Positions 3,179-64,000 of a stretch of 64,000 nucleotides of DNA are shown here, in pieces. Numbering within the stretch: position 1 is the stretch's first letter; each line of letters starts with the position of its first letter. Both the position numbers and the translations under genes were made by a program. Source of the stretch: a virus (Duplodnaviria > Heunggongvirae > Uroviricota > Caudoviricetes); IMG/VR virus record IMGVR_UViG_3300000944_000006, positions 18,380 through 82,379 of that record. One strand, given 5' to 3'. Under the pieces are notes generated by a model. That model saw nothing but the letters and a program-made list of their open reading frames with translations. It had not been told where the DNA came from and made no database searches.

Positions 3179-3484
3179 TTAAATATCGTCTACAGCAGCT
3201 TCGTACATTTCTGAAAGCATAATTTCATTTTCGTACTTAGCTTTATCTTTACGAATCTTTTTACGCTTAGATAAAACTTTACGGACAATAGACGGGTCAA
3301 GATTATATGTCTTGGCTTCTTCAAGAATAGTTTTCTTATCGAATTGAAGGTCTTCAATTTCGATTTCGACAGCTTCGGCACGTTGAACGATATTCTTCAA
3401 CTGCTGTATTTCAATGCTGTTCATTTGCGTAGTGTCTGCCATATATATTCTTTCCTTTTTATTATAGTTACAGGCTTGTTTCAT
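3179..3484 (-). CDS. hypothetical protein (101 aa)
   Basis: ORF with a charged, helical-looking sequence. Confidence 0.45.
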   Translation of the reverse strand: MKQACNYNKKERIYMADTTQMNSIEIQQLKNIVQRAEAVEIEIEDLQFDKKTILEEAKTYNLDPSIVRKVLSKRKKIRKDKAKYENEIMLSEMYEAAVDDI

Positions 3485-3815
3485 ACAACGTTTGTCTAGT
3501 CAACGTTATTTTTCTTTCCCATATTTGCTTCTTGCAAAAAATAAAATAACATCCTTCGATTTCTATTTTATTTTCGTCTATGATTTTAATCTTTGCATCA
3601 TAAGACTTTTGGTTCATTGGATTGACTATCATACCTTTTAAGTCTTTGTCAAAGTCAAAAAGTATCTTTGTCCCTTTTTTGGAATATCCGCAGATATATT
3701 CTCCGCAAGGTTTTATATGTATTTCTTTTTCGTTAGGTGTCATCCAAACACCAGTTAGAAGTATCAAAGAAAGCTGTTTAAATAGTTGCATCATCCGTCG
3801 AAGATAAATCGACAA
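3468..3815 (-). CDS. hypothetical protein, probable N-terminal signal/TM segment
   Basis: Hydrophobic LSLILLTGVWM near the N-terminus. The start may be the internal MMQLF. Confidence 0.4.
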   Translation of the reverse strand: MSIYLRRMMQLFKQLSLILLTGVWMTPNEKEIHIKPCGEYICGYSKKGTKILFDFDKDLKGMIVNPMNQKSYDAKIKIIDENKIEIEGCYFIFCKKQIWERKITLTRQTLYETSL

Positions 3816-4582: not shown

Positions 4583-5305
4583 TTACAACTCTATAATTAA
4601 CGGTTCGTATTTACCATATTTCTTGTCAAGAAGATATCGTTCTTCTGGATATCCGTGTGGATTTGCCACAACACGCGTGTCACCTAACATATAGTCAACA
4701 GGGTCATGAATATGTCCGTGGCCCCATAGTGCAGGCTTTCTTGTTTTGATAAAATTATCTAAATTATTATGAAAGAAGTCGTTAATGGGATTTCCTTTCC
4801 ATCTATCCACAACAGACATGTTAGACGGACTATGATGTGTGAACACTAAATCGCCTTCTTCAACAACATCCATAAGCCATTCATAAGACTTTTTAAATTC
4901 TTCATTGGCACGTTCACCGCTCCAATCGCCAATATAATTTGAATCATTTAGCTGCTTCTCATACATAATTTCACGTATGGGGGAAGACATGTGCGTCCAT
5001 AAGGTACACATATGTACCTTACGACCTTTCACATCTATTGTGTGATTATTGTATGATGAATTTAAATTATTAAAAACAAAATTATTTACATCATCAAAAT
5101 CTTGGTGATAATATTCATGGTTTCCTGCTAAATATGCAATCTTCTGTTCTTCAAGTTCTTTAACAGAATGTATGCGCGTCTGTACTTCATAAGGATTACC
5201 TATATCGCCTGCAAGAACATATAAATCGACATTTTCACTTTTAGGAATGATAGGAATGTTACTACCATTTCTCATGTGCGTATCTGATACAAGAGCAATT
5301 TTCAT
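4583..5305 (-). CDS. calcineurin-like metallophosphoesterase
   Basis: MKIALVSDTHM, LAGDIGNP and LAGNHEYY blocks (D-x-H, GD, GNHE motifs). Confidence 0.65.
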   Translation of the reverse strand: MKIALVSDTHMRNGSNIPIIPKSENVDLYVLAGDIGNPYEVQTRIHSVKELEEQKIAYLAGNHEYYHQDFDDVNNFVFNNLNSSYNNHTIDVKGRKVHMCTLWTHMSSPIREIMYEKQLNDSNYIGDWSGERANEEFKKSYEWLMDVVEEGDLVFTHHSPSNMSVVDRWKGNPINDFFHNNLDNFIKTRKPALWGHGHIHDPVDYMLGDTRVVANPHGYPEERYLLDKKYGKYEPLIIEL

Positions 5306-18214: not shown

Positions 18215-18574
18215 TTAATGTATAGCGGTTGTTGGCGAAAGCACATCGAAGACTTTCTTGCATGTGTATTTATAAACCATGCCATTATCCCCATCTAGCT
18301 TTTGTTCTACGCCCATTTCATAATGTGGTGATGTAGCAGACATAGATGCTTCTGTTAGTTCAAAATGCTGTGACATGCCAAAATATGTCACAGACGATGT
18401 GTTTGCACATTGTATCGCTGACAGGATAGTCATATCCGATAGCAATTTCTGCATGAATACAGGACGTTGATAGATATCCGAAACTGAAAAGGTTATATTT
18501 CCAAGACGTTTTCGAATATCCGTCTTTTCGTCCATTTCATCGGCATAATCCATTAAATGTTCTTTTGTATTCAT
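18215..18574 (-). CDS. hypothetical protein (119 aa)
   Basis: ORF. Confidence 0.45.
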   Translation of the reverse strand: MNTKEHLMDYADEMDEKTDIRKRLGNITFSVSDIYQRPVFMQKLLSDMTILSAIQCANTSSVTYFGMSQHFELTEASMSATSPHYEMGVEQKLDGDNGMVYKYTCKKVFDVLSPTTAIH

Positions 18575-30030: not shown

Positions 30031-30606
30031 TTAAAGTTGGCTACGAATCGTTCCGTGGTCGTTCAAGCAAGGGATTTTCATATCATCAATTTTGATATAG
30101 GCGGTTTCTTTTCCAAGAAATTCTTGTTTGCAAACTTCAACGCCGTTCCAATCAATATAACCATATTCAGGGTTTTTAGTAAGGGCTTCAACACTTGCTG
30201 TCAATGATTCAAATGTCCGTTCGCGACGAGCAAAAACATAGTCAGCGCCGCTTGAAATCAACACAGCACCTTCTACAGGGGCTTCGTTTTCTTGGCTTTC
30301 GACATATCCCATACTACCAGTTGTTCCTTGCACAACAGCTATAGACGCTGTTCCGTCAGGATGTAGCCACATCTTTTTGTAATAGGCCATATCAATCATA
30401 CCATCAAAACCTTTACCACTAAAAGCGTTGATAATTTCTTCAACTTCAGACTGCTTAGGCCCGTCTGTGTAAGAAACGTTAATAGATGCGCCACCTGCGT
30501 ATTTTTCAGACCGAACTGAAAACTTCGTTTCTGGGTATTTTGATTTTAAAGTCTTACGAATGATTTTCGCAATTTCGACAACAGATTTATAAACAGCTTC
30601 TGCCAT
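30031..30606 (-). CDS. hypothetical protein (about 191 aa), expressed from promoter cassette copy D
   Basis: Start set at MAEAVYK with GGAGAA 8 nt upstream. Confidence 0.5.
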   Translation of the reverse strand: MAEAVYKSVVEIAKIIRKTLKSKYPETKFSVRSEKYAGGASINVSYTDGPKQSEVEEIINAFSGKGFDGMIDMAYYKKMWLHPDGTASIAVVQGTTGSMGYVESQENEAPVEGAVLISSGADYVFARRERTFESLTASVEALTKNPEYGYIDWNGVEVCKQEFLGKETAYIKIDDMKIPCLNDHGTIRSQL

Positions 30607-30695
30607 AACATTTTCTCCATTTTTGCTACGAACTATAATTATCACACTATGTTGTGTATTGCAACACTTATTTTGATTTATTTTTAAATTTATCT
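30606..30695 (-). promoter_or_regulatory. early promoter/leader cassette copy D (TTGCAA, palindrome TGTTGTGTATTGCAACA)
   Basis: A 34-nt stretch AAATAAATCAAAATAAGTGTTGCAATACACAACA is identical to copy B (50855..). The leader is homologous to copies A and C. Confidence 0.6.
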
Positions 30696-30800: not shown

Positions 30801-30840
30801 CTAAATAAAGAAAAAAGAAGAGGAAATTGTTCCTCTTCTT
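30801..30840 (-). terminator. rho-independent terminator (11-bp stem AAGAAGAGGAA/TTCCTCTTCTT, 4-nt loop, U-run on minus strand)
   Basis: Hairpin 17 nt after the stop of the 30858..31373 gene, followed on the minus strand by TTTTCTTTATTT. Confidence 0.6.
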
Positions 30841-30857
30841 TATAATATCAGCAGGTA

Positions 30858-31373
30858 TTAAGCTGCTTGTCGCTGATGTTCAGTAGCTTTCCATTCAGCA
30901 AAACGTTGCATTGTGACGCGCGAATCATCTGTTGAATATTTGCGAATCATTTTTTCAATAGCAGACCAATTTGGCGTTGTCCGCGTCTGGGGGTTTTCCA
31001 TATGTGTGTATGGTGTACCGCGTAGGAAACCGTATGCAAGATGCGTAGACCGTGCGGCGGAACGAACAATTGTTTTACGATGGTCTTGAAGGCTCTTATA
31101 CGCGTTTAGACGTGCGCGGGCCTGCTGTTGCCATTTTTCAAGCTTTTCAGGCGATACATTGTTTTGTGCAATATACGCTTTTTGCTTTTCAAGTTGGCGC
31201 TTCAGCTTCGTTTCTTCTGTGCGAATCGTCCGTGATTCGTCAGAAAGGTTTTTCAATTTGATTTTCATTTTAATAGACATATAATTCCTCTTTGTCTGTC
31301 TTTGTGCGAATGTTTGTTGTTTCATAATAATAAAATAAGGAATTATTTTACGGCGGTGATTTATTGCGTTCAC
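30858..31373 (-). CDS. hypothetical protein
   Basis: ORF in a locally GC-richer segment. The true start may be an internal Met (MSIKMK). Confidence 0.45.
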   Translation of the reverse strand: MNAINHRRKIIPYFIIMKQQTFAQRQTKRNYMSIKMKIKLKNLSDESRTIRTEETKLKRQLEKQKAYIAQNNVSPEKLEKWQQQARARLNAYKSLQDHRKTIVRSAARSTHLAYGFLRGTPYTHMENPQTRTTPNWSAIEKMIRKYSTDDSRVTMQRFAEWKATEHQRQAA

Positions 31374-31428
31374 AAATTACGCATAGTGATATCCTTTTCT
31401 GCTAATGTTTAAATCTTTTTACAAAATT

Positions 31429-31499
31429 TGGAGGAATACTAGGGACTCGAACCCCATGCTTTAAGGATTGAAAGCCTTAGCAAACCCGCGTTGTATTCC
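31429..31499 (-). ncRNA. tRNA-like element with non-canonical structure (7-bp acceptor GGAATAC/GTATTCC, T-arm GGGGTTCGAGTCCC, CCA end, short D-arm, apparent 8-nt anticodon loop CTTTCAAT)
   Basis: Hand folding gives a perfect acceptor stem, canonical T-arm and encoded CCA, but only 11 nt for the D region and the stem TAAGG/CCTTA closing an 8-nt loop. Confidence 0.4.
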
Positions 31500-31555
31500 A
31501 CATATAATCATTATTTATGGGAAAGCAACCAGTAGCAGCAGCTTTCCCAATGTTA

Positions 31556-32416
31556 CTATTTATTAACGTTGATGAACGGTACTGCGCCAGACCCCATATA
31601 AGTCGGTAATTGACCATTCCAAGATTCGACAGAACGTAGTTCAATCACTTGTGGATTACGGGCAATCGCATCGCCTTCCAAATCTAGTGCATCAGCTTTA
31701 GCTTTTGCTTCGATAAGAATTGCTTCAGCACGGCCTTTTGATTCCGCAATTTTAATTTGCGCTTCGGCGTTAGCTGTTTGAATTTGGTTCTCACGTTCTT
31801 GTGCGACCTGCGTGGCACGAATTTTCGCGTCGATAGACTGCACAACAGATGGTGGTAAATTCATTTCACCAATCCAGTAAAGTTTTTCGATATTGATACC
31901 GAATTGCTTAACTTGCGCCTGTACGTTAGCTTGGGCGTTTTTCATAAGCGTCACCTTACCTTCGCCATAAACAGCTTCGATAGGCATTACAGACCCGCCT
32001 TCAACAAGTGCATCACGTACCATGTTACGAAGATATACATCCGTAATTTCATGGATACCACGACGATATTTCTGGAATAGAATATCAACTTTTTCAGGGT
32101 CGACATAATACGACATACCAATATCAGCAGATACTACAAGACCGCCTCTTGTTTGGAATGAAACGCTTTCGTCAGTTTTAGAACCACGGCGCGAATCAGA
32201 AGTCCATTCTTCGTTTTGGGTAAATGTCGGGAAGATATGAAGTTCTTGCGTAGGCGGAATAAATTCATATCCCACACCTACCACTTCTTCATTGACAGCA
32301 TTGTCAGACCCTAATTTGTCAACTTTGACCCCCACATGCCCTACAGGGACTTTTGAACAAGCTGATACTGCTACGAGCGCAAGGGCTGCAATAAATGGTG
32401 TGAAAAATCGTTTCAT
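31556..32416 (-). CDS. SPFH/band-7 (HflK/HflC-stomatin-like) lipoprotein
   Basis: Lipobox LVAVSAC after a signal peptide. Central region and C-terminal coiled-coil AEAQIKIAESKGRAEAILIEAKAKADA are typical of SPFH-domain proteins. Confidence 0.65.
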   Translation of the reverse strand: MKRFFTPFIAALALVAVSACSKVPVGHVGVKVDKLGSDNAVNEEVVGVGYEFIPPTQELHIFPTFTQNEEWTSDSRRGSKTDESVSFQTRGGLVVSADIGMSYYVDPEKVDILFQKYRRGIHEITDVYLRNMVRDALVEGGSVMPIEAVYGEGKVTLMKNAQANVQAQVKQFGINIEKLYWIGEMNLPPSVVQSIDAKIRATQVAQERENQIQTANAEAQIKIAESKGRAEAILIEAKAKADALDLEGDAIARNPQVIELRSVESWNGQLPTYMGSGAVPFINVNK

Positions 32417-32443
32417 ACGAATCTCTTTCTTTTTGTTTAAGGA

Positions 32444-32653
32444 TTACTCTTCGATAGAATTGGGAAGAAGAATTTTTTTGGCGCTATCTTTACCCATTGC
32501 ATAAGCGAATAGACATACTGCTAAAACAGCAAGAAATCCAAACGCAACAATAAAGCCACTACCACTATTTAATAAGTGCGGAATTATCATTCCTGCGGCA
32601 ACTGCCAGTAAAAACATACGGGCGATGTGATAAAAAATTCTAAGTAAATACAT
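32444..32653 (-). CDS. small two-TM membrane protein upstream of the SPFH gene
   Basis: 69 aa, two hydrophobic helices. Same-strand neighbour 27 nt upstream of the SPFH gene. Confidence 0.45.
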   Translation of the reverse strand: MYLLRIFYHIARMFLLAVAAGMIIPHLLNSGSGFIVAFGFLAVLAVCLFAYAMGKDSAKKILLPNSIEE

Positions 32654-32862
32654 ACGCTTTATAAATCCTTCATTCTCAATTTATGCATTAATGTTAATTA
32701 AGCTTTTCTATATTGTCAATAATTATTTTAATATTTTTAAATGGATTACTATTTTTTTTCTGGTGTAATATTCGAAAGCTTACAAGCTTTTTTTAAATCT
32801 TCGGTACTACAATAAGCGGGCTATATATGTAAGACGCCGCACGAATTTTTCTTGCAAGGATT

Positions 32863-35102: not shown

Positions 35103-35741
35103 TCAAACTATATTTGGCATGTCGTTATAAAAATCTACAAAGACATCATATACGTCTGCAAGAGCAACAAAATCACAAGACGCATCATCTATACCATCAC
35201 TGTTTAAATCTGCTGTGCTATTAGTTGTCACAAGTATTCCTAAAGGTTCTCCATATTCAGAAACAACAGGCGAACCAGACATTCCACCACCTACAGGCTG
35301 ATAATATATATGTTCATAGGCGTCATGCGACAATATAAGTGGTGGATTTTCCATTTTGGCTATCCAAGTAGGTGTTACATAACCATCAGAACCAGAAACA
35401 TCTCTTTTGTAATGAACGCGCATAACACGTTCTGAAAGATGCCCTGAAGCATGGGGGTATCCCCACGTATAAAGCCTTTCCCCGCGTTTTGGTTCGCGTG
35501 GTCTAGCCATAGAAGATAAATTACAACCGATTAAAGCTGCGTCTATAACACCTGTTCCTGCCATTATTTCTCCGCTCACAAATGGTGGTAGTTTACGTTC
35601 TTGTTCTTTTAAAACATGCATAGCAGTTACCCAACCACCTGCCCATTGCCAATATGTTCCAGACGCTTCTACACGCTTTGATGCGTGGAAATGCTTTTTT
35701 ATTATAAATCCAAAGTCTTCAGGTCTTTTCATCACAATCAT
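35103..35741 (-). CDS. trypsin/chymotrypsin-like serine peptidase
   Basis: Candidate catalytic His in TAMHVLKE and an oxyanion/Ser motif GGGMSGSPVV (GDSGGP-like). Locally GC-richer codon usage. Confidence 0.5.
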   Translation of the reverse strand: MIVMKRPEDFGFIIKKHFHASKRVEASGTYWQWAGGWVTAMHVLKEQERKLPPFVSGEIMAGTGVIDAALIGCNLSSMARPREPKRGERLYTWGYPHASGHLSERVMRVHYKRDVSGSDGYVTPTWIAKMENPPLILSHDAYEHIYYQPVGGGMSGSPVVSEYGEPLGILVTTNSTADLNSDGIDDASCDFVALADVYDVFVDFYNDMPNIV

Positions 35742-36021
35742 ATTTATAAATTATTTTTACAATACGTGTTTCATCAACAAAATAAATTCTTTGTAAAAAG
35801 TTTTCTATGCACAGTTGGTTCCAAAATTTAGTCGATGGCCCCATTCCTGTATTAATAAGTTCAAGCATTTTTTCGTCGTGAATACTATCTAATGGTATCG
35901 TTAAGGGTGTGCCCTGAATGTTCAAATTTATTTGAACATGTGGACTTGGATATGAAAAATTATCAGAAGTAGAAAGATATATACTATGTATGTCTTCAGT
36001 TTTAATATAAAATTTATACAT
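35719..36021 (-). CDS. small protein, MYKYKI family (MYKFYIKTED)
   Basis: Start set at the family methionine. Confidence 0.4.
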   Translation of the reverse strand: MYKFYIKTEDIHSIYLSTSDNFSYPSPHVQINLNIQGTPLTIPLDSIHDEKMLELINTGMGPSTKFWNQLCIENFLQRIYFVDETRIVKIIYKYDCDEKT

Positions 36022-36352
36022 AATCAATACCAACAATAGTTTTCATATTTGCGAAATAGATTCTTTTAATACCATCTGGTAATTTAATTTTATGCCATGC
36101 CTCATTATCTTGTGGTATAGGAGTTTGTTGCAACAACATACTTTGAAAAATTGGACATAATATGTGTTCAAACGATAATGTAAAATCTAATTGGCATTCT
36201 GTTTTCGTGCGTATATTTCGTGTAATTATATTTGCAGTATTTTGACTATATACATAGTTATTAGCAGACGCCAACCATATATACGGGTCGATATTTTTTC
36301 GTTGTATATAAAATTTCTCATAGTAGCAGTCATTTGTCATAGAGTTTCCCAT
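36014..36352 (-). CDS. hypothetical small protein
   Basis: ORF. Confidence 0.4.
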   Translation of the reverse strand: MGNSMTNDCYYEKFYIQRKNIDPYIWLASANNYVYSQNTANIITRNIRTKTECQLDFTLSFEHILCPIFQSMLLQQTPIPQDNEAWHKIKLPDGIKRIYFANMKTIVGIDYV

Positions 36353-47069: not shown

Positions 47070-48596
47070 TTACGCCTGTACCCATGTGTCTGTTCCACCA
47101 CTATTTATAACTCTTCTATATAGTATTCCATCATCACCTTCGCGAATTTCTGCCCGAATAGCTTCTGGTGTCCATCCAAGCATAAGAGTTTCATCGTCAT
47201 TATCTGCAATACCCACAGAAGTTGTTCCGTTTTGACTTCTTATAGAAATTGTCTCTTGGAAATGGTCTGCGCCATTTTGAACAACAACAGTAATAGGTAC
47301 GTTAGCAATAATTACACCTGCGCCTAACGTACCTACAAGTGTATTTGTGGCTTCTGCGTCATTTGATATTAGACCTGCTGTAGGATGATTTTGGTCTTCT
47401 TTAGAATTAACTGTGACATTTGTACGATTAAGTGGTACGGTATATCTTAACACTAAAGAACTTGTTGCTGCATCCCATTCATAGACTTTAGCTTCACCTA
47501 CATATGGTGATGCAATAGCAACACCTGAATTGCCCCCATCGCCATTGTCGGCAATATAAAATGGTTGTGCAACAACTTGTGACATAGCTGTAACAGGCAT
47601 AGCAGGTGATGCTTCAAGACCTGCACTATCTGCGCCTGAATACCATGTACCAAGACCATTAATAAGTGTTCTTGTAGCGCCATTTGGTTCGTAATCTGAA
47701 TCTGTTGCGCCTGTGATAGAATCAATAGGTTGTGGCGATGCAGGATTTACAGTAAAACTTCCACTCACACCGTCCCTAACATAATAGTTGAAAACAGTTC
47801 CTGAAAAAGGTGCTGAAGCGTCACCAGAACGCGGCCAAGATATTAAATCATTTGATAGTGGCATGATAAGACGGCTATCATAATATTGATTAGAATCCAT
47901 ATTTGCGTTTGTACATGCCATGACGGGATTAGCCCCTTCAAGAATATATTCACGAACGCCTGTGCCGTGCAATTCGATATATTCCCAAGGGGCTAGTTTT
48001 ATATCTTCTTGTCCGTCAATTGTATTACCAAAACCGTCTGTTAATTTAATTGTATTTGCAAGAGGGCCGTTAACAACATGTATCAAACCTTCGTTTAAAT
48101 TTGTATTAGAACCAAAGTTTCTAAACCCAAAGAAGAATGTAAAATCAAAACCTAAACCGTATGACAATAGTGGCATAGGCGATTCATTACTGCCTGTAAC
48201 TTGGTCAGAAACACCATAAAAACCTTGTGTAGATGTGATGATAGCGCCATTAGAAAGACCTGTAAAAACGATAGGTTCGCCAAGAGACATAAATTCTCGA
48301 TAAAGAACGTTCCCCGCATTAAAGTCTGCGCCAGATGCATAAACTTCTATTGTATTTCCGTTTCCTAAAGAGACGCCTTGAACTTTACCAGTGTCCGTGT
48401 AACCAACAGCCAAAACAGTTAGCGCAGGTTGCCCTGCATTTGCTAAAAGCTGTTGTTCAAGACCTAGTGTAGACCCTGAAGCAATATCTCCTACATCAGA
48501 AATAAGTGCTACAGGGTTTTCGACAGTTGCAGCAGGATTTCCACCCACTTCAAATGCCGATGTACCGTCTTTAGTAATATCGACTAAAGAACGCAT
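47070..48596 (-). CDS. putative tail fibre/structural protein (Gly/Ser/Thr/Asn-rich, 508 aa)
   Basis: Composition and size typical of fibre proteins. Much higher GC and small-residue content than neighbouring genes. Confidence 0.45.
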   Translation of the reverse strand: MRSLVDITKDGTSAFEVGGNPAATVENPVALISDVGDIASGSTLGLEQQLLANAGQPALTVLAVGYTDTGKVQGVSLGNGNTIEVYASGADFNAGNVLYREFMSLGEPIVFTGLSNGAIITSTQGFYGVSDQVTGSNESPMPLLSYGLGFDFTFFFGFRNFGSNTNLNEGLIHVVNGPLANTIKLTDGFGNTIDGQEDIKLAPWEYIELHGTGVREYILEGANPVMACTNANMDSNQYYDSRLIMPLSNDLISWPRSGDASAPFSGTVFNYYVRDGVSGSFTVNPASPQPIDSITGATDSDYEPNGATRTLINGLGTWYSGADSAGLEASPAMPVTAMSQVVAQPFYIADNGDGGNSGVAIASPYVGEAKVYEWDAATSSLVLRYTVPLNRTNVTVNSKEDQNHPTAGLISNDAEATNTLVGTLGAGVIIANVPITVVVQNGADHFQETISIRSQNGTTSVGIADNDDETLMLGWTPEAIRAEIREGDDGILYRRVINSGGTDTWVQA

Positions 48597-48605
48597 GGCA
48601 GTTTA

Positions 48606-49265
48606 TTACGCTAGTACGATAACACGTATTTCGTTTGTAGAAGGTGCTACAGCGAAAGATACGTCCACCGTGTTTGCATCTACACGTGTAGAATCTGCAA
48701 TGACAGTTTCGCCAGTAGCAACGTCTACGAACTGTACCATAACATCAAGTGTTGCAAGGTTATGCGTAAGTGTATAAGATGTTAACGAACCATCACCAAC
48801 AGTTTCTTGATAACGTTTGATAGACAGAATATTTGCAATATCGTCTTCGTTATCACGAATAAGTGCTGTAAATTCAGCAATTGTATCAACAGTTGCATCG
48901 ACAGCATCATTTGTAAATGCGGCTGTAATACGACCATCAATAACAGTTACAAGGTCTGTGATTTGGGCAGATGTGTGTGTATGACCTACAAGCGCGAACG
49001 CAGAAGGTTCAAGACCACGGAATAAGTCAGCATCGAGGCCAGAGCCTTGTCCATCAACAGTTAAAAGCGCATTAAGAATATCTGTTGCAGGCATGTCGCC
49101 TGAAATTGGATTCCACTGAACACCGTCTGCATATTTGATAAGACTTTCCGTTGTATTATAATAAATACGGCCTGCTGTTGGTACGGCAGGGTCTGTTGGT
49201 AGGTTTTCGAGAACAAGATTCAATATTGAATTTAGAACCATGTCCAATTTAGTTAAGTGTCTCAT
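48606..49265 (-). CDS. putative tail fibre protein with tail-collar-like GHTHT motif
   Basis: ALVGHTHTSAQITDL resembles the conserved G-x-H-x-H segment of phage tail-collar fibre domains. Confidence 0.4.
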   Translation of the reverse strand: MRHLTKLDMVLNSILNLVLENLPTDPAVPTAGRIYYNTTESLIKYADGVQWNPISGDMPATDILNALLTVDGQGSGLDADLFRGLEPSAFALVGHTHTSAQITDLVTVIDGRITAAFTNDAVDATVDTIAEFTALIRDNEDDIANILSIKRYQETVGDGSLTSYTLTHNLATLDVMVQFVDVATGETVIADSTRVDANTVDVSFAVAPSTNEIRVIVLA

Positions 49266-49281
49266 TTTTTAATTTTCCTTT

Positions 49282-49629
49282 TTAATCGACTCTTGCTGTT
49301 CCCATCACAGGAATTGAAAAAACAACGGTTGTAATGTTTTCGTTGTCATGTGTTATTTCGCCTATAATCTGCTTGCCGTTTTCGTCATAAATCGTCACAT
49401 CAGCAATGTGACCACGATTATGAACGAGCGTCCAAATAGTTGAAGGTGTCTCTTGTATATATATAAAAGGTAATGCGACTTGCGGTTGTGTAAACTGTGT
49501 TTGCGCTAATACCGATACTACTTTTGCAGAAACTTTCATAGAACGTCTTCGCAGCATAAGCTTACCTGCTTTACCTACAAATTCACCAGATGCTTGATAA
49601 TATGCGGATAATTTACCAGACCCTGACAT
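49282..49629 (-). CDS. hypothetical late protein (115 aa)
   Basis: ORF abutting the next gene (shared nucleotide). Confidence 0.45.
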   Translation of the reverse strand: MSGSGKLSAYYQASGEFVGKAGKLMLRRRSMKVSAKVVSVLAQTQFTQPQVALPFIYIQETPSTIWTLVHNRGHIADVTIYDENGKQIIGEITHDNENITTVVFSIPVMGTARVD

Positions 49630-54235: not shown

Positions 54236-54350
54236 GTGCGCGTAACCAAGCTGTGAAAATATCTTCGTCAGAAACTACAATATTATGCTTAGTCATAAGT
54301 TTCTGTAATTTTTGTATAATACTATGCTTCACAAGCAAAACATTCTCCAT
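54147..54350 (-). CDS. hypothetical protein downstream of nrdA
   Basis: Start set at internal MENVLLVK. Confidence 0.35.
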   Translation of the reverse strand: MENVLLVKHSIIQKLQKLMTKHNIVVSDEDIFTAWLRAHEGVWNDDVPDDFDNVMSKIIPHVNVHFE

Positions 54351-57135
54351 TTGATGCCTGAACACCTGCTTCAGACCGTATATAATATAATGACTTAATA
54401 TAAGGATTGACAAAAGCTTCTGAATGTATCATCGCAACATATTCTGGGTCTTCATCAGCAGATATATACAAATTTATAGATTGTGCTTGGTCAATATATT
54501 TTTGTCGTTGTGCCGCATAACGTATAATCGTCAATTGGTCAATCTCAAAAGCTGTTTTGAACAAAGCCTTTTCATCGTCACTAAAAAATTCTAAATGCTG
54601 AACAGACCCTTTATTATCGACAATGGAATCAATAATTGCATCTGTATATTGTCCATGCTTTTCAAGATATTCGATAAGAACTGGATTTATACGGTTCATT
54701 TTACCTGCGGCTGTACCTTGCGTATAAACATTTTTAGGAAATGGTGATATGCCTTCAGAAACACTACCACACACAATAGCAGATGATAGAGTAGGTGCTA
54801 CTGCCATAAGTGTAGCATTGCGTCGACCAAGACCCTTACAAGATTCTGGTTCACCTAATTCTGCGGCAAGCCATTCCGTAGCAGCTTCTGCTTGTACTTG
54901 GATATTTTTAAATATTTCCACATTTTTAAATTGCGCTTCAAGGCTTTCCCAAGGAATACCATTTTTCTGAAAATATGTGTGAAGACCGAGTGTGCCCAAG
55001 CCTAATGCACGGAAACGTTGTGTGAAACGAACGACTTTTTCAAGACCTTCCATATCTTTACCGCGCTGTATAAGGTCTTCGCAAACGCAATCTAAAAGAA
55101 CAATTGCTGTTTCAATCGCATTCGTATCTTTCCATTCATCATATTTTGCCAGATTCATAGACGATAGAACGCAAGAAAATGTATGTTCTTCATCAGAAGG
55201 TAGCGCAATTTCAGAGCAGTTAAATGTTTTCATGCCCTGTGCAATAAATATGTGTTCATCTGTATGTACAGTTGGACAATATACATCTTCTTTACCATAA
55301 TACTCTATAGATTTTATTTTGTAACCCTTTTTAGAATTATCACGATACTTTCGATTTTCTAAATGAACACCTTTTCGGGATAAAAATCCTGTATGTTTTT
55401 CGACAACCAAGCAATCATTTTTATTTCCTACAATAAGTCTCCAACAATCTTTTGTGTTATATAGCTTTTGTCCACCTTTTCCATCTGGCAATAATGATTC
55501 ACCTGCTTTTCTTAGTATTCGTATAGAAGTTTGAAGTCCTAAGTTTTGGAATAAAATTTGAAGTTCTTTAATAAAATCTAAGTTAATATCTGTGTATGAT
55601 AAATGTATAGGATTTCCTTTTGAAGGAGATACATTTATTGTACCATCTGCGTATAATAGCCCGCGAACATATTCCCATTGTGTCTTTTCGTCAGATTCCC
55701 ATATCCAAGAAGGGACATACCCTTTTTCAAAATTCAAGGCTTTTTTAAGAGTAGCAGAAGACAATGTTCTTTTTCTATGGCTTCCTTCGCGAACATGTGA
55801 TTCGCGAAACTTAGCAGGTGTTCTTCCGCGATATTTTCCAGTTTTTCCTATTTCATATTTATCGCATCCGTATTTGTAATGTATTCGGTCAAATTTTTCT
55901 TTGATTTCATTCTCTAAATCAAAATCATTTTCCCAAAGACACAGATGAATAGAATTTTTGTGTTGCGTTCCGTCCGATTGATACTGACCTAACAAAAATG
56001 CTTCATCTTGCATATCGGCATTTCCAAAAATACCTTTGTTAGTTTGAATTGCAATTTTATGACCTATGTTCAGGTCTTTCAATTCAATTCGTGTGATATT
56101 ATTTCTTGCATCAATAACAGGAAACCCATGATTATCCGTGGCTTTAATTTCCATTCCATTTTCTAATGTAACTTTATAAACATCTTGGTTTTCGCCACGT
56201 AAAATCATTTTTGTAGAATTTACCTTATTTTCGCCGTCAAATAATACCAAAGATTCATTTATATCATGAAGTTCTTTAGCTGTTAAATATCCATATGACG
56301 AAACTACGCGCGTATCACCTGTTATACAAAGATTAGAAGCTTTGATTAGCATACCACTATTTTTAATAGCAGGTGGTGCTAAATCATTCATGCGGTCAAT
56401 AAAACAAAAATATCCCTTGCCTGTAACAAGCTTACGCAACAACGCACGTTTAAAGCGAGAATTTGCTTCTTTGTCGCCATTCACTAATCGTGCAATAAAT
56501 TCATCAGAAATATTCCAACCAATATTTAAATCATCTGGATAATTTTTCATATGGTCGCAAATATCCCAAAAATCTCCATGTTCGATTGGAAGATAGCCTG
56601 CCCATGCACCGCGTCTCGAAGACCCTTGTGACACTTGAACTGCTGTATTAACATGTCCTTGGATAACAGGAACTACCCCATCTGCAACACCGTCTACACC
56701 ATATTTCTCGCCACGCGGACGTATATCCCCAAGATATGATGACGTTCCAAAGCCATATTTTGAAAGCATTGCCGTTTCTGTATAAGACCCAAAGAAACCT
56801 GCTATACTATCTGGTGTATAGTTTCCAGAACAGCTTACAGAAAGCCCTTTTTCCGTCCCTGTATTGGACATAACAGGCGTTGAAAGAGAAAGATAACCTT
56901 TCCACACAACATCAAAGAAACGCTTCTCCCAATGCTTAGAATTAGGCATATGGGCGGCGAGTGTTTTAGATATTCTCTTTAATTGCTCTTTATATGTTGT
57001 AGCTTCGAACAGATATTTTTGTTTGAACATAGACCATCCAATAGTTGTAAACCACATAGGAAGGTCGCCATCTTCTTGCATTTTTTTCCGCTCTTGCGAA
57101 AGTTCTTCATAAGTATTTTCGTTTAAATTATCCAC
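54322..57135 (-). CDS. nrdA: ribonucleotide reductase class I large subunit (no ATP-cone), interrupted by an intein at the active-site cysteine
   Basis: Extein junction ...IKASNL|CSEIALPS restores the catalytic SNLCSEI motif. C-terminal CFAC pair present. Extein about 567 aa. Confidence 0.8.
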   Translation of the reverse strand: MDNLNENTYEELSQERKKMQEDGDLPMWFTTIGWSMFKQKYLFEATTYKEQLKRISKTLAAHMPNSKHWEKRFFDVVWKGYLSLSTPVMSNTGTEKGLSVSCSGNYTPDSIAGFFGSYTETAMLSKYGFGTSSYLGDIRPRGEKYGVDGVADGVVPVIQGHVNTAVQVSQGSSRRGAWAGYLPIEHGDFWDICDHMKNYPDDLNIGWNISDEFIARLVNGDKEANSRFKRALLRKLVTGKGYFCFIDRMNDLAPPAIKNSGMLIKASNLCITGDTRVVSSYGYLTAKELHDINESLVLFDGENKVNSTKMILRGENQDVYKVTLENGMEIKATDNHGFPVIDARNNITRIELKDLNIGHKIAIQTNKGIFGNADMQDEAFLLGQYQSDGTQHKNSIHLCLWENDFDLENEIKEKFDRIHYKYGCDKYEIGKTGKYRGRTPAKFRESHVREGSHRKRTLSSATLKKALNFEKGYVPSWIWESDEKTQWEYVRGLLYADGTINVSPSKGNPIHLSYTDINLDFIKELQILFQNLGLQTSIRILRKAGESLLPDGKGGQKLYNTKDCWRLIVGNKNDCLVVEKHTGFLSRKGVHLENRKYRDNSKKGYKIKSIEYYGKEDVYCPTVHTDEHIFIAQGMKTFNCSEIALPSDEEHTFSCVLSSMNLAKYDEWKDTNAIETAIVLLDCVCEDLIQRGKDMEGLEKVVRFTQRFRALGLGTLGLHTYFQKNGIPWESLEAQFKNVEIFKNIQVQAEAATEWLAAELGEPESCKGLGRRNATLMAVAPTLSSAIVCGSVSEGISPFPKNVYTQGTAAGKMNRINPVLIEYLEKHGQYTDAIIDSIVDNKGSVQHLEFFSDDEKALFKTAFEIDQLTIIRYAAQRQKYIDQAQSINLYISADEDPEYVAMIHSEAFVNPYIKSLYYIRSEAGVQASNGECFACEA
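55219..56328 (-). mobile_element. LAGLIDADG homing-endonuclease intein in nrdA (370 aa)
   Basis: Starts CITGDTRVV, contains FLLGQYQSDGT and RGLLYADGT LAGLIDADG motifs, ends ...GMKTFN before Cys+1. Penultimate residue is Phe rather than His. Confidence 0.7.
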
Positions 57136-61653: not shown

Positions 61654-63093
61654 TTAAATTCCTTTTATTATATTTAGAACAAATTTTCTTACGCGCAGGT
61701 CAACCTTTTCGCCCATCAATACAGACGCGAACATTTCTGCCCAAAATTCTCTTACATTTGTTCTAGCATATTCAGTCACGAACCATGAATCATCATAGAT
61801 AAAATCGCCATTTCTTCTTTTGGTTTTTGGTGTTAGTATTCTACGAAGCTTTTGTAATGTTGTCGGACGGCCTTTATAAGTCATGGTAACAAATCCTTTT
61901 GTAAGCATTTCATGAGACTTTCCCATATAATCCCCACTACCATCTGATGTTACGACTATGCCAAAAGGTTTATTTCTAGCACCTTCTTTACCAAAAGACA
62001 GTATTTGGCGACCAGAAGACATATCCAAGACATCTCTTACCATTTCTTCGCCCTTAGAAAGACCATATTTTTTATTTTTGCTTTTATTCCAATAAAATTT
62101 AATATCGTTTGTGTTTTTTATAGATGAAAAAAGGGCTTTTTTAAAAACTGTATAATCTGCGCTACGAACCATGTGCCTTTTAAATTCTTCATCTTTTCTT
62201 ATTTTAGCGTTTTTACCATTAGACTTTTTAGCTTGCGAATAAACTTCTTCTAATGCCTTTCTATCCTTTGAAGAAAAATATTCATAATCTATTTTGTGAC
62301 CTATTTCATGAATAATAACCCGAATAAAAAATCGGTCTGTGTCATGGCGAGGGTCGATAACAAGTTCTTTACTATTAGAATAGTAAAGTCCTGCTGCACG
62401 TCTTGATGAAATAGTCCCAATTATTATATCAGAATTGTCCCATACATTTTCTATTTTTGTACGTTTCATGATACGATATGCTACATTAAGACTTTTCTTA
62501 ACTTTATCTAACTTCTTTGGGTCAAAATTTTCTCTTACCTTAATTTCATTTTTACCTACTTTGATAGTGTTGGTAGATGTTTTGTTAAAAGATGATTTTA
62601 CTTCATCCCAATTAACTTTTTCGGAAAATCTTTTAACCCAATCATGATTAAGCTTTTTATTATTTGTTGCCCATTTATAAAAATCTATAGACGTTTTAAA
62701 AACAATTTTTTCAAGGGCTTTTGGAAATCTTCTTGATACAGCTTCACATGCTTTTAAGTACATGTCCACATTACCATCAAGTTTAGGATAATGAAATGCA
62801 TGTCTAAGTTCTTCGACATAATCATACATTAAACTGTCTGAATATTCCAAACCACTCATAAATTCATTATCAGACCCGTCCCATGATGTGTTGATAAATT
62901 TAGAAAAGTCTTTCTTAGCAATAAACACGTAATGTTTTTCATCCAAACCATTACTATTTTCCGTGTTATAGGGAAAAATAACCATATGATTAGTACGAAA
63001 AGGTGTGCGCGTTGCCATTCTTGCTATACAAGAATTAGAATCGTCGTAATACGGCCTTTCGAATCTTGCCATTTTATTATTCACCATCCACAT
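61654..63093 (-). CDS. large protein with HExxH zinc-metallopeptidase motif
   Basis: VIIHEIGHKIDYEY contains HEIGH. Confidence 0.45.
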   Translation of the reverse strand: MWMVNNKMARFERPYYDDSNSCIARMATRTPFRTNHMVIFPYNTENSNGLDEKHYVFIAKKDFSKFINTSWDGSDNEFMSGLEYSDSLMYDYVEELRHAFHYPKLDGNVDMYLKACEAVSRRFPKALEKIVFKTSIDFYKWATNNKKLNHDWVKRFSEKVNWDEVKSSFNKTSTNTIKVGKNEIKVRENFDPKKLDKVKKSLNVAYRIMKRTKIENVWDNSDIIIGTISSRRAAGLYYSNSKELVIDPRHDTDRFFIRVIIHEIGHKIDYEYFSSKDRKALEEVYSQAKKSNGKNAKIRKDEEFKRHMVRSADYTVFKKALFSSIKNTNDIKFYWNKSKNKKYGLSKGEEMVRDVLDMSSGRQILSFGKEGARNKPFGIVVTSDGSGDYMGKSHEMLTKGFVTMTYKGRPTTLQKLRRILTPKTKRRNGDFIYDDSWFVTEYARTNVREFWAEMFASVLMGEKVDLRVRKFVLNIIKGI

Positions 63094-63748
63094 AAAAAAT
63101 GTTTGGATATTTTTTAGACTTTACTCTATTTCTATAATAGCTTGGGTTCTTTTTCAAAAGTCTTTCTGCTGTTCCACATGTTTCATAAATTACACCATCT
63201 ACAGAAATTCTTTTGCCCGCACTAGGATTATTTCTACCCAATTTAGATTTTCGTAATTTAGTTTTAGTTTCTTCTGAATGTTTATATCCATTTTTCATTC
63301 GTGTTGATATAGATTTTTCAACAATTTCTTTTGGAATGGTTCTGCCGATTAAAGATTTAGATATATTTTCTCTTCGTTTTTTTGTATGTTTTGTTCCTTT
63401 TAAAGAATTTGAAATTTTCAATTTTGTTTCATCAGAATGTTGATATCCGTGCCTTCCATATTTTTCATTGCCGCCAACACCACCTTGCCTTAAATTATAT
63501 GTGTTAGGATTTTTTACAAATTCTTTATTTACTACCTCTTTTTCCTTCTTAAAAATTTCTTCCTTTGACAAACATTCAAATAATATTTCTTTTTTAAAGT
63601 TTTTCCTACCATATTTTTTTATAGATTTTTTAATAACTACGCCACTTCCCAAATATCCATCATTTGGGTTAGATGTTTTGTGAACGCCAACATAAATTTT
63701 TCCATTTATAACATTTGTTATCTTATAAAGCGTATATATTTTTTTCAT
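63077..63748 (-). CDS. GIY-YIG homing endonuclease (second copy)
   Basis: MKKIYTLYKITNVINGKIYVGVHKT...YLGSG... plus NUMOD3-like repeats. About 60% identical over the N-terminal domain to the 782..1420 protein. Start set at MKKIY. TATAAATA (63754-63761, minus) lies 5 nt upstream. Confidence 0.7.
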   Translation of the reverse strand: MKKIYTLYKITNVINGKIYVGVHKTSNPNDGYLGSGVVIKKSIKKYGRKNFKKEILFECLSKEEIFKKEKEVVNKEFVKNPNTYNLRQGGVGGNEKYGRHGYQHSDETKLKISNSLKGTKHTKKRRENISKSLIGRTIPKEIVEKSISTRMKNGYKHSEETKTKLRKSKLGRNNPSAGKRISVDGVIYETCGTAERLLKKNPSYYRNRVKSKKYPNIFYVDGE

Positions 63749-63771
63749 AATATTATTTATAAGATAACAAA

Positions 63772-64000
63772 TCAGTTGAACCAATCCGCTAACTGACTTA
63801 CAACAAGTTTTTTCCACATTGGGTCTGATAAATCAGCCGCATAAGGCACAAGATATCCAAATTCACGAATAGGTATGTACTTGTCTTTCGGCAGTCTACT
63901 AAACCAATCTTTACAAAGTTTTAAAAGAACTTTTTTATTCTCTAAAGGAACGTCATATCTATCGCCAACAAATTCAAGAATATCTTCAAGACGCCCAAAA
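63772..64000 (-). CDS. partial CDS running off the window edge (C-terminal about 75 codons)
   Basis: Open minus-strand frame ending ...QLADWFN stop at 63772. The N-terminus lies outside the window. Confidence 0.4.
   Translation of the reverse strand, partial: FGRLEDILEFVGDRYDVPLENKKVLLKLCKDWFSRLPKDKYIPIREFGYLVPYAADLSDPMWKKLVVSQLADWFN

Follow-up and report, generated by a model that had tools for sequence, protein, structure and literature searches.

Eight-membered anticodon loops have been described in +1 frameshift suppressors such as SufB2 and SufJ and in engineered decoders of UAGN and other quadruplets, which are mutants or laboratory constructs derived from sense tRNAs; the layout C32-U33-NNNN-A37-N38 is used in the engineered UAGN readers. 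Papers on this subject include PMC4238358, PMC7803779 and PMC4764823. Phage suppressor tRNAs carry amber (CUA) or opal (UCA) anticodons, and Borges et al. expected many of them to be non-canonical in structure and undetected, and proposed that standard-code, low-GC phages gain suppressor tRNAs before recoding (bioRxiv 10.1101/2021.08.26.457843). No description of a dedicated partner protein of phage suppressor tRNAs was found in the literature. Open reading frames (ORFs) for SPFH proteins were noted in T4-like phages in 2006 (PMC1524935). Here, a 64,000-nt stretch of a virus of the Caudoviricetes (IMG/VR record IMGVR_UViG_3300000944_000006, positions 18,380 to 82,379; hereafter the window, in whose coordinates positions are given unless a locus is named) was analyzed at 30858-32653, a segment that an earlier note, made from the sequence alone, had regarded as one GC-richer island with an SPFH lipoprotein gene, a small membrane protein gene and a bounding tRNA-like element. 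The best explanation, to which we assign a probability of about 55%, is that the segment holds two independent accessory units on the minus strand: unit A, an SPFH cassette that would act on the cell envelope, and unit B, a tRNA-like RNA predicted to read UGA or a quadruplet, together with a putative helper protein. The SPFH finding is correct and ordinary; the tRNA-like element is the more interesting of the two. Unit B comprises the following features:

31429-31499, minus strand: tRNA-like RNA of 71 nt, with a 7-bp acceptor stem, a T arm and an encoded CCA
31345-31373, minus strand: promoter-like block between the RNA and ORF140 (GTGAAC, 17-nt spacer, TAAAAT), as read from the sequence
30858-31280, minus strand: ORF140, encoding a 140-aa all-helical basic protein, with an ATG following an AGAGGA ribosome-binding site
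30804-30841, minus strand: intrinsic terminator ending unit B, with a 12-bp stem (30841..30814), a 4-nt loop and then UUUUUUCUUUAUU; calculated free energy (dG) -15.0

The tRNA-like element was present at exactly the position given in the earlier note, and the terminator reported there was likewise found, with a stem and a U-run. The acceptor stem of the RNA is GGAAUAC/GUAUUCC, followed by a discriminator U and the encoded CCA, and the T arm (UGGGG-UUCGAGU-CCCUA) is canonical. The anticodon arm has a 5-bp stem, UAAGG/CCUUA, closing the 8-nt loop CUUUCAAU (31474..31467), with five pairs formed in this arrangement versus three in the 7-nt register, and the variable region is 5 nt. When the isolated 71-nt sequence was folded, the minimum-energy structure was cloverleaf-like and contained the 8-nt loop. 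ARAGORN detected the element only at the ps80 threshold, at which random sequence gives approximately 22 hits per 64 kb. The Rfam tRNA model (RF00005), run on 111 nt, scored 22.1 bits (gathering threshold, 29; E=0.0082 when 4227 families are counted); if only the tRNA model is considered and the search space is the entire window, E is approximately 0.001 by our own arithmetic. The element is therefore tRNA-derived, without being a standard tRNA. The idea of a host tRNA fragment or attP was rejected, the exact 23-mer of the T arm and acceptor being absent from IMG/VR and from 185,579 species genomes. Paralogy with the Met, Lys and Arg tRNAs of the window was also rejected, generic tRNA positions alone being in common.

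The element was absent beside L019 and L020, the two closest metagenomic relatives of the SPFH gene, and the gene downstream of it was therefore examined. This third gene (31280..30858) lies inside the segment and was undescribed in the earlier note. The RNA ends 148 nt upstream of its start codon on the same strand. The same phage was recovered only as a JGI contig and Logan fragments; the gene call in the Logan copy agrees with the ATG at 31280, and an independent Logan assembly ends just past the unit B terminator. An initial search yielded nine ORF140 homologs, and the homologs span 31-61% identity. Four loci found by protein homology alone, namely L022 (60% identity), L023 and L024 (44-47%) and L017 (38%), have a co-oriented tRNA-like element approximately 100 nt upstream of the homolog. 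These elements differ in their fully paired 7-bp acceptors (GGACUAU/AUAGUCC, GGCUCAC/GUGAGCC and CGCGCAU/GUGCGUG), and all carry the identical 12-mer GGCUUUCAAUCC, a canonical T arm, N-CCA and a short D region. The promoter-like block is nearly identical in L022, reading TGAACG(C/T)AATAAATCACCGCC(G/T)TAAAA, and may function as a promoter.

A search of IMG/VR for the motif GGCUUUCAAUCC followed by a T loop gave 115 loci with 84 distinct elements. Canonical tRNA-Glu(UUC) genes accounted for 39 of them; their D regions measure 19-21 nt, and 4-5 of the 5 anticodon-stem pairs form in the 7-nt register. Another 42 were non-canonical (referred to as group B), with a D region of 10-21 nt and a stem that was never perfect in the 7-nt register and often perfect with the 8-nt loop; the motif of the window RNA is identical to that of these 42. 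A co-oriented ORF140-family gene was present near every group B element (42/42; the distance is at most 1.6 kb, and in 34 cases at most 150 nt), located 3′ of the RNA or, at a near-constant spacing of 37-45 nt, 5′ of it, and no ORF140 homolog was found near the 39 tRNA-Glu genes and 3 atypical elements (0/42).

Forty-one group B elements were aligned by anchoring segments and padding with N, as a MAFFT alignment had misplaced the 5′ acceptor strand. The acceptor stem was 99.3% paired, a figure inflated by the choice of the 5′ strand as the best complement within approximately 37 nt, and each of the seven pairs varies on both strands; pairing in the T stem was 99%. Shuffles and slid registers gave 37-60% pairing. 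Full 7/7 acceptor pairing was seen in 39 of the 41 elements, compared with approximately 4% of sequences expected by chance according to our own estimate. The results showed that the RNA-ORF140 gene pair is conserved across many phages and that the acceptor and T stems covary. ARAGORN at default settings detected 16 of 43 elements, labelling 12 of them as 'tRNA-??? (ttca)', which corresponds to the 8-nt loop; standard tRNA finders thus miss most such RNAs (27/43 here).

The ORF140 protein belongs to a very large unannotated family tied to suppressor-type tRNAs. A profile search of 1.84 billion cluster representatives gave 3,445 matches at E≤1e-3 and 2,453 at E≤1e-10, and the family hidden Markov model (HMM) matches the window ORF140. 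No match to ORF140 was obtained in Pfam, PHROG, NCBIfam, PADLOC or PDB, and 20 further family members searched against Pfam-A and PHROGs gave nothing but one marginal PHROG match (E=0.003). The AlphaFold2 (AF2) model is all-helical with a pLDDT of 85.5. Invariant residues are K8, L12, E15, I19, H67, R77, H80-L-A, F85-L-R, E95, T101, P103, E109, Q125, F127-A and W130. A likeness to domain 1 of RF2 was at noise level in Foldseek (E 3-5, probability ≤0.28) and was left unused.

Protein-first searches avoid the motif bias of the RNA search. By our own tally, 13 of 20 protein-first loci had a stop-anticodon tRNA adjoining the homolog, and such tRNAs were found in four lineages of isolated phages. 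In DSS3_MAL1, the homolog follows an annotated 'tRNA-Pyl' (CUA) with the loop context GG-CUU-CUA-AC-CC, the same frame as that of the window RNA, GG-CUU-UCA-AU-CC. In Stenotrophomonas phage DLP_5, a tRNA-Sup-CTA lies 8 nt past the homolog, and in Synechococcus phage BUCT-ZZ01 the homolog is preceded, at 150 nt, by a tRNA(CUA) that is not annotated (L157 363-438). The 'tRNA-Val' adjoining the homolog in Agrobacterium phage OLIVR1 needs the 8-nt loop GCCCUAAC to form a perfect 5-bp stem, and its anticodon is CCUA according to ARAGORN; this annotation (L153 1324-1400; NC_055840.1 40274-40347) looks mis-assigned. IMG/VR loci from the protein-first searches included L142 with CUA, L143 with UCA, and L140 and L149 with UUCA. 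The stop-anticodon tRNAs beside the ORF140 family often have an 8-nt loop of the form C-U-[N-CUA or U-UCA]-A-N. Because of this homology in loop frame, the window anticodon is best read as UCA in an expanded loop or as a four-base UUCA.

On the preferred reading, the RNA would be matured like a tRNA by the tRNA machinery and would read UGA, either with UCA in the expanded loop or as the quadruplet UGA-A/G through UUCA, at selected sites or times; ORF140 may be a dedicated helper or regulator that assists or restrains the RNA. A broader proposal is that 8-nt-loop tRNAs, some with a mitochondrion-like reduced D arm, are natural and widespread in phages and read stop codons, possibly as +1 quadruplets (UGA-A/G, UAG-N), each with a helper of the ORF140 family; we put it forward tentatively, as a possibility with the odds against it. 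In comparison with described systems, unit B resembles phage suppressor tRNAs in that the ORF140 family adjoins the DLP_5 tRNA-Sup-CTA and the DSS3_MAL1 'tRNA-Pyl', and differs from them in the 8-nt loop, the shrunken D arm and the standard code of the region. The element fits both remarks of Borges et al. quoted above. It shares the 8-membered loop with SufB2, SufJ and the engineered decoders; unlike those mutants and constructs, the window-type loop occurs naturally, is conserved among phages, has a linked protein gene and is predicted to be aimed at a stop codon.

Unit A lies upstream of unit B on the same strand and comprises the following features:

32691-32719, minus strand: sigma-70-like promoter candidate (TTGACA, 17-nt spacer, TAACAT)
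32444-32653, minus strand: gene of a small inner-membrane protein of 69 aa, with two transmembrane segments, a short polar loop and a basic tail
31556-32416, minus strand: gene of an SPFH/Band_7 lipoprotein of 286 aa, assigned with Pfam, PHROG, AF2 and Foldseek
31519-31548, minus strand: hairpin lacking a U-run, 8 nt past the tandem stop codons (TAG-TAA) of the SPFH gene

The SPFH/band-7 identity claimed in the earlier note was confirmed by a profile search, in which PF01145 matched residues 22-218 with 77.5 bits (cut-off 23.6; E=1.7e-21). The lipoprotein claim was also borne out: the N-terminus has an MKR n-region, a hydrophobic stretch and the lipobox V-S-A-C, whose Cys20 is invariant in 32 homologs. 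The invariant residues are C20, W266, G268 and P271, the latter three within a conserved C-terminal W-x-G-x-x-P motif. In the AF2 model (pLDDT 78.9), the SPFH domain begins 2 residues past Cys20 and is followed by a 65-residue helix (189-253). Foldseek top matches of the model were the cage subunits of prohibitin, erlin, HflK/C, stomatin and QmcA (E 1e-14 to 1e-8, probability 1.00), and the sequence profile gave weak matches only in the PDB (HflC, HflK and QmcA). By tblastn, relatives were found in 579 GenBank phage records, temperate and lytic. The two closest relatives, 72% and 64% identical, share no further gene with the window over a distance of 4 kb. The minimum-free-energy fold of 31512-31552 consists of a 9-bp outer stem and a small inner hairpin (dG -17.1 kcal/mol), and a hairpin likewise lies directly 3′ of the SPFH gene in L019 and L020. 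None of the three proteins (69-aa, SPFH and ORF140) matched the defence-system models of PADLOC.

The 69-aa gene (32653..32444), with its two hydrophobic segments, agrees with the co-oriented upstream protein of the earlier note; it is separated from the SPFH gene by a 27-nt gap on the same strand, and the two are probably co-transcribed. It had no significant match in Pfam or PHROG, and a word-seeded homolog search returned only the protein itself, the partners being too diverged. A small two-transmembrane ORF (60-80 aa) lies directly upstream of the SPFH gene, often overlapping its start, in 10 of 11 lipobox-type loci: Vibrio phage CKB-S1, Ochrobactrum phage ORM_20, Burkholderia phage phi1026b, the five IMG/VR loci L004 and L006-L009, and L019 and L020. 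In the aligned partners, a Pro at the end of the first transmembrane segment is nearly invariant. When an HMM built from nine partners in other phages was run against the window ORFs, the 69-aa ORF was selected with E=9.1e-9 (next best, 0.06). It follows that the partner is homologous among phages and is inherited together with the rest of the cassette. These results showed that the two-transmembrane protein and the lipobox SPFH protein form a widespread phage unit whose members travel together. Upstream of them, the sequence TTGACA-17-TAACAT was the joint-best match in a 3.5-kb scan, with 10 of 12 positions. In L020, a small RF-1/GGQ protein (3272-3508) precedes an SPFH cassette.

Unit A (approximately 32719..31519) may work as follows. 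The SPFH lipoprotein would be exported and acylated at Cys20, placing the SPFH domain directly on the periplasmic membrane face, and would oligomerise through its long helix into a ring or cage like those of prohibitin, HflK/C, QmcA and stomatin, as suggested by fold similarity only. The two-transmembrane protein would be its inner-membrane partner or client, and the unit would act on the cell envelope during infection, by superinfection exclusion or envelope stabilisation.

The closest known relatives of unit A are the phage SPFH or 'prohibitin family' lipoproteins of PHROG 200, including the phi1026b lipoprotein (with gp49) and the CKB-S1 'putative lipoprotein'. Identity to these is 43-53%, and phrog_200 ('lipoprotein') matches the window protein over its full length (residues 1-286, E=6e-78). 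The lipobox, SPFH domain, long helix, conserved C-terminus and small two-transmembrane ORF upstream are all shared, and the only difference is the genome background, the closest relative (72% identical) lying among unrelated genes. The SPFH ORFs of the T4-like phages RB43, 44RR and Aeh1 are counted within this group (PMC1524935). Pasteurella multocida PM0222 (Pmorf0222) is described as an HflK/C-like SPFH protein of a prophage island that is released with outer-membrane vesicles and signals via TLR1/2 (PMC9872710). The likeness is by description; TLR1/2 signalling fits a lipoprotein, and the protein has been studied as a bacterial virulence factor rather than in phage biology. HflK/HflC-FtsH and QmcA-YbbJ of Escherichia coli resemble unit A in the SPFH fold with a coiled-coil cage helix and in the adjacent gene for a small membrane protein. 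HflK and HflC differ in being a paralogous pair with transmembrane helices, and QmcA-YbbJ in that the partner in the window has no NfeD OB-fold domain.

The window is AT-rich (33.7% GC), with the minus strand carrying nearly all of the genes. Among the products encoded are a ribonucleotide reductase, a primase and a nicotinamide phosphoribosyltransferase, together with three ordinary tRNAs (Met, Lys and Arg), and the window is therefore part of a large phage. DNA nearly identical to the window was sought among GenBank phages and none was found, so that no close relative is present there; the largest uncharacterised protein of the window also had no match among GenBank phages. Composition was computed, and the GC-richer segment of the earlier note was confirmed: 30858-32653 has a GC content of 0.410, compared with a mean of 0.337 (standard deviation 0.022) for sliding windows of the same length, and none of these exceeds the one that starts at 30851 (0.412). 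Of all ORFs in the window, that of the SPFH protein has the highest GC content (0.432), with GC at first codon positions (GC1) of 0.596 (z 2.6) and at third positions (GC3) of 0.328 (z 1.15). The excess is chiefly at first positions because the protein is rich in Ala, Gly, Val and Glu; it is largely an amino-acid-composition effect, with no strong signal of foreign codon usage. The ORF140 gene has a GC content of 0.415-0.434 (171-aa ORF and 140-aa coding part, respectively) and a GC3 of 0.36 (z 1.8, measured on the 171-aa ORF). The small transmembrane gene (0.362) and the intergenic DNA (0.353) are ordinary for the window. A second GC-rich patch (approximately 0.40), at 47070-49629 on the minus strand, holds ORFs of 508, 219 and 115 aa; GC1 and GC2 are high and GC3 is low, and amino-acid composition is therefore the cause. 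The 508-aa protein had no PHROG match and no GenBank phage match.

Composition alone is weak evidence of foreign origin, and comparative data are better. L022, from a related phage, has counterparts of ORF140 (60%) and of a trypsin-like gene (62%) of the window and has no SPFH cassette; at the position of the cassette, it carries a tRNA array and unrelated small ORFs. Since L022 holds the RNA-ORF140 pair with a tRNA array instead of the SPFH gene, the region is a variable accessory slot, and the SPFH cassette and the RNA-protein pair are neighbours by accident. Rather than bounding one island, as the earlier note had it, the RNA forms a second, independent unit together with the 140-aa gene downstream of it.

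Several observations weigh against the two-unit explanation and the decoding assigned to its RNA. The D region of the RNA is 13 nt (containing GGG), compared with approximately 19-21 nt for a normal D arm; ARAGORN misses 31429-31499 at default settings, and a 2.4-kb Rfam scan gave nothing. In many family members, the anticodon stem is well kept only in its inner 3 bp, and 7 of the 20 protein-first loci have no stop-anticodon tRNA, one of the seven being cut by a contig end. Foldseek gave nothing better than E=2 for ORF140 and no recognisable fold relative. The genetic code is standard: coding coverage is 89% under code 11 and only 92-93% with TGA or TAG as sense, and the largest ORFs are not appreciably longer. 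TGA terminates 17 of 114 window genes, long in-frame or +1 extensions after TGA are not enriched relative to those after TAA and TAG, and no consistent TGA recoding was seen in 28 group B loci compared with 52 control loci. For these reasons (standard code, no TGA extension and no recoding at the loci), the RNA does not serve a recoded genome in the parts read; nor was there any sign of stop-codon recoding in the 10 kb beyond the window end. As to unit A, the total of promoter-like sites in the 3.5-kb scan was not above shuffle expectation, leaving the promoter a candidate; the +2 residue of the lipoprotein is Ser, which is not decisive between inner- and outer-membrane localisation; and a literature search on the role of the SPFH cassette returned only the Pasteurella multocida prophage protein, studied as a virulence factor (PMC9872710).

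Other explanations of the RNA were weighed on the same data. The first seven bases of its loop, CUUUCAA, equal those of the canonical phage tRNA-Glu(UUC) genes, which keeps a Glu-type reading alive: the RNA could be a tRNA-Glu derivative, serving as a nuclease-resistant variant or as a decoy for a host anticodon nuclease or tRNA-Glu-binding factor and stabilised by ORF140. Phages carry tRNAs with altered anticodon loops that evade tRNA-targeting defences, GAA makes up 1,136 of 18,825 window codons, and the combination of a conserved upper half and a degenerate lower one is what a mimic might show. The company kept by the ORF140 family speaks otherwise, since its members adjoin CUA and UCA tRNAs with the same frame GG-C-U-U-NNN-A-Y-CC, NNN being a stop anticodon, and the protein is not encoded near any of the 39 canonical tRNA-Glu genes; we consider the tRNA-Glu derivative unlikely. 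The sub-threshold detector scores and truncated D arm, and the finding that 91 nt, with flanks included, show no better folding than shuffled sequence does (z -0.76), would also suit a decaying pseudogene or a mere RNase P/RNase Z processing signal, for which adjacency to ORF140 would be meaningless. This is very improbable and is largely refuted by the comparative data, because the linkage of RNA and protein is repeated at 42 distinct elements and at 13 of the 20 protein-first loci, covariation of the acceptor and T stems is nearly perfect, and the loop motif does not vary; these are features that pseudogenes do not retain.

For the segment as a whole, the GC maximum of the window and the patchy occurrence of both coding units among unrelated phages could indicate a single, recently acquired foreign island of 1.8 kb. 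The patchiness does fit mobility, as the earlier note had proposed in suggesting horizontal acquisition, but the GC excess of the SPFH gene, being mostly a GC1 effect, lends that proposal little weight. One island is improbable: everywhere else examined the units occur separately (SPFH relatives without the RNA or ORF140, and ORF140 loci without SPFH), the four parts were not found together in the same order in unrelated genomes, the small transmembrane gene and intergenic DNA are at ordinary GC (0.36 and 0.35), and GC3 is merely 1.2 to 1.8 standard deviations over the mean. A function of the SPFH lipoprotein and its partner as a phage HflK/C or NfeD-SPFH operon that modulates host FtsH, also raised in the earlier note, would agree with the HflK/C-like fold, the weak profile matches to HflC, HflK and QmcA, the periplasmic orientation expected for the SPFH domain as in HflK/C, and the many temperate phages among the carriers. 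It is doubtful and was given a low probability. The HflK/C identity itself was rejected, the protein failing the hflK equivalog model TIGR01933 (23.4 bits versus a cut-off of 159.4), with one SPFH gene instead of a heterodimer pair and a lipid anchor, and the FtsH link has no specific support; prohibitin and erlin rank as high as HflK/C in Foldseek, and large phages that are strictly lytic, T4-like ones among them, commonly have the cassette as well (PMC1524935). The gene order and membrane topology do resemble those of an NfeD-SPFH operon, but the partner is not NfeD, because PF01957 had no match to it in Pfam at E≤0.1 and two transmembrane segments with a short tail leave no room for an OB-fold. 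The size and topology of the two-transmembrane protein resemble those of class II holins, and a very weak Pfam holin-family match (E=0.055) was obtained, so that a holin- or antiholin-like role, with the SPFH lipoprotein tuning lysis timing, was considered. The match is not significant, no endolysin or spanin lies near the cassette in the window, and in other phages the cassette stands among early or nucleotide-metabolism genes; there is accordingly little to commend a lysis role, and we regard it as a long shot.

Additional RNAs and proteins were observed at the ORF140 loci. In L017 (IMGVR_UViG_3300037524_000086), a permuted two-piece transfer-messenger RNA (tmRNA) at 2418-2858 matched the Rfam models tmRNA_permuted (123 bits) and beta_tmRNA (84 bits), with the tag peptide ANDSVYEDVRLAA; this gene immediately precedes the 8-nt-loop tRNA-like element, with a slight overlap, and the ORF140 homolog comes next. 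L023 has a second, smaller tRNA-like element in tandem at approximately 2784-2838, just before the main one, with acceptor CCCCCUC/GAGGGGG, T loop UUCAAUU, G-CCA and hardly any lower half. Small RF-1/GGQ proteins of the peptidyl-tRNA hydrolase type (GKGGQ) are encoded right after the ORF140 homolog in L023 (3501-3863) and L024 (1538-1900), and small RF-1/GGQ proteins also occur near the homolog in L118 (11307-11693) and L148 (2603-3202); a systematic linkage to ORF140 homologs was sought, and few loci only were found. L018, which has no recognisable tRNA-like element, contains a 'skipping-rope' RNA (RF02924; 41.2 bits, gathering threshold 36.7) at 4729-4846, approximately 1.2 kb downstream of a distant ORF140 homolog.

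Elsewhere in the window, a 105-aa ORF (35719-36036, minus strand) ends in UGA-A, and its +1 frame runs into the overlapping 212-aa trypsin-like gene (35103-35741, minus strand), so that a UGAA quadruplet reader would fuse the two; this overlap is probably due to chance, such overlaps being common after all three stops here. Beyond the unit B terminator, the gene at 30031-30645 (minus strand) has a product of 204 aa that matches phrog_15549 and contains an LPD29 domain ('large polyvalent protein associated domain 29'; E=1.7e-22), the domain being here a stand-alone small protein. The ribonucleotide reductase large subunit (54322-57135, minus strand, 937 aa) is interrupted by an insertion of approximately 400 residues, which is an intein with a homing endonuclease, since the Logan copy matches Intein_splicing and LAGLIDADG_3 in Pfam. 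The ORF at 63077-63817 (minus strand), directly upstream of a 479-aa gene, has weak NUMOD3 and I-TevI DNA-binding matches in precomputed annotation and is probably a homing endonuclease of the GIY-YIG or HNH type.

The SPFH cassette is ordinary, a further member of a very common phage gene pair; the two-transmembrane protein is truly co-inherited, and the pair should therefore be studied jointly. The association between tRNAs of the stop-codon type, many of which have expanded loops, and a large unannotated family of proteins is widespread and apparently undescribed, and the tRNA scaffold and helper protein could serve as natural parts for genetic-code expansion. Unit B suggests that standard-code phages may deploy stop-codon or quadruplet readers under protein control, and it bears on the onset of stop-codon recoding in phages, on programmed readthrough and on frameshifting.

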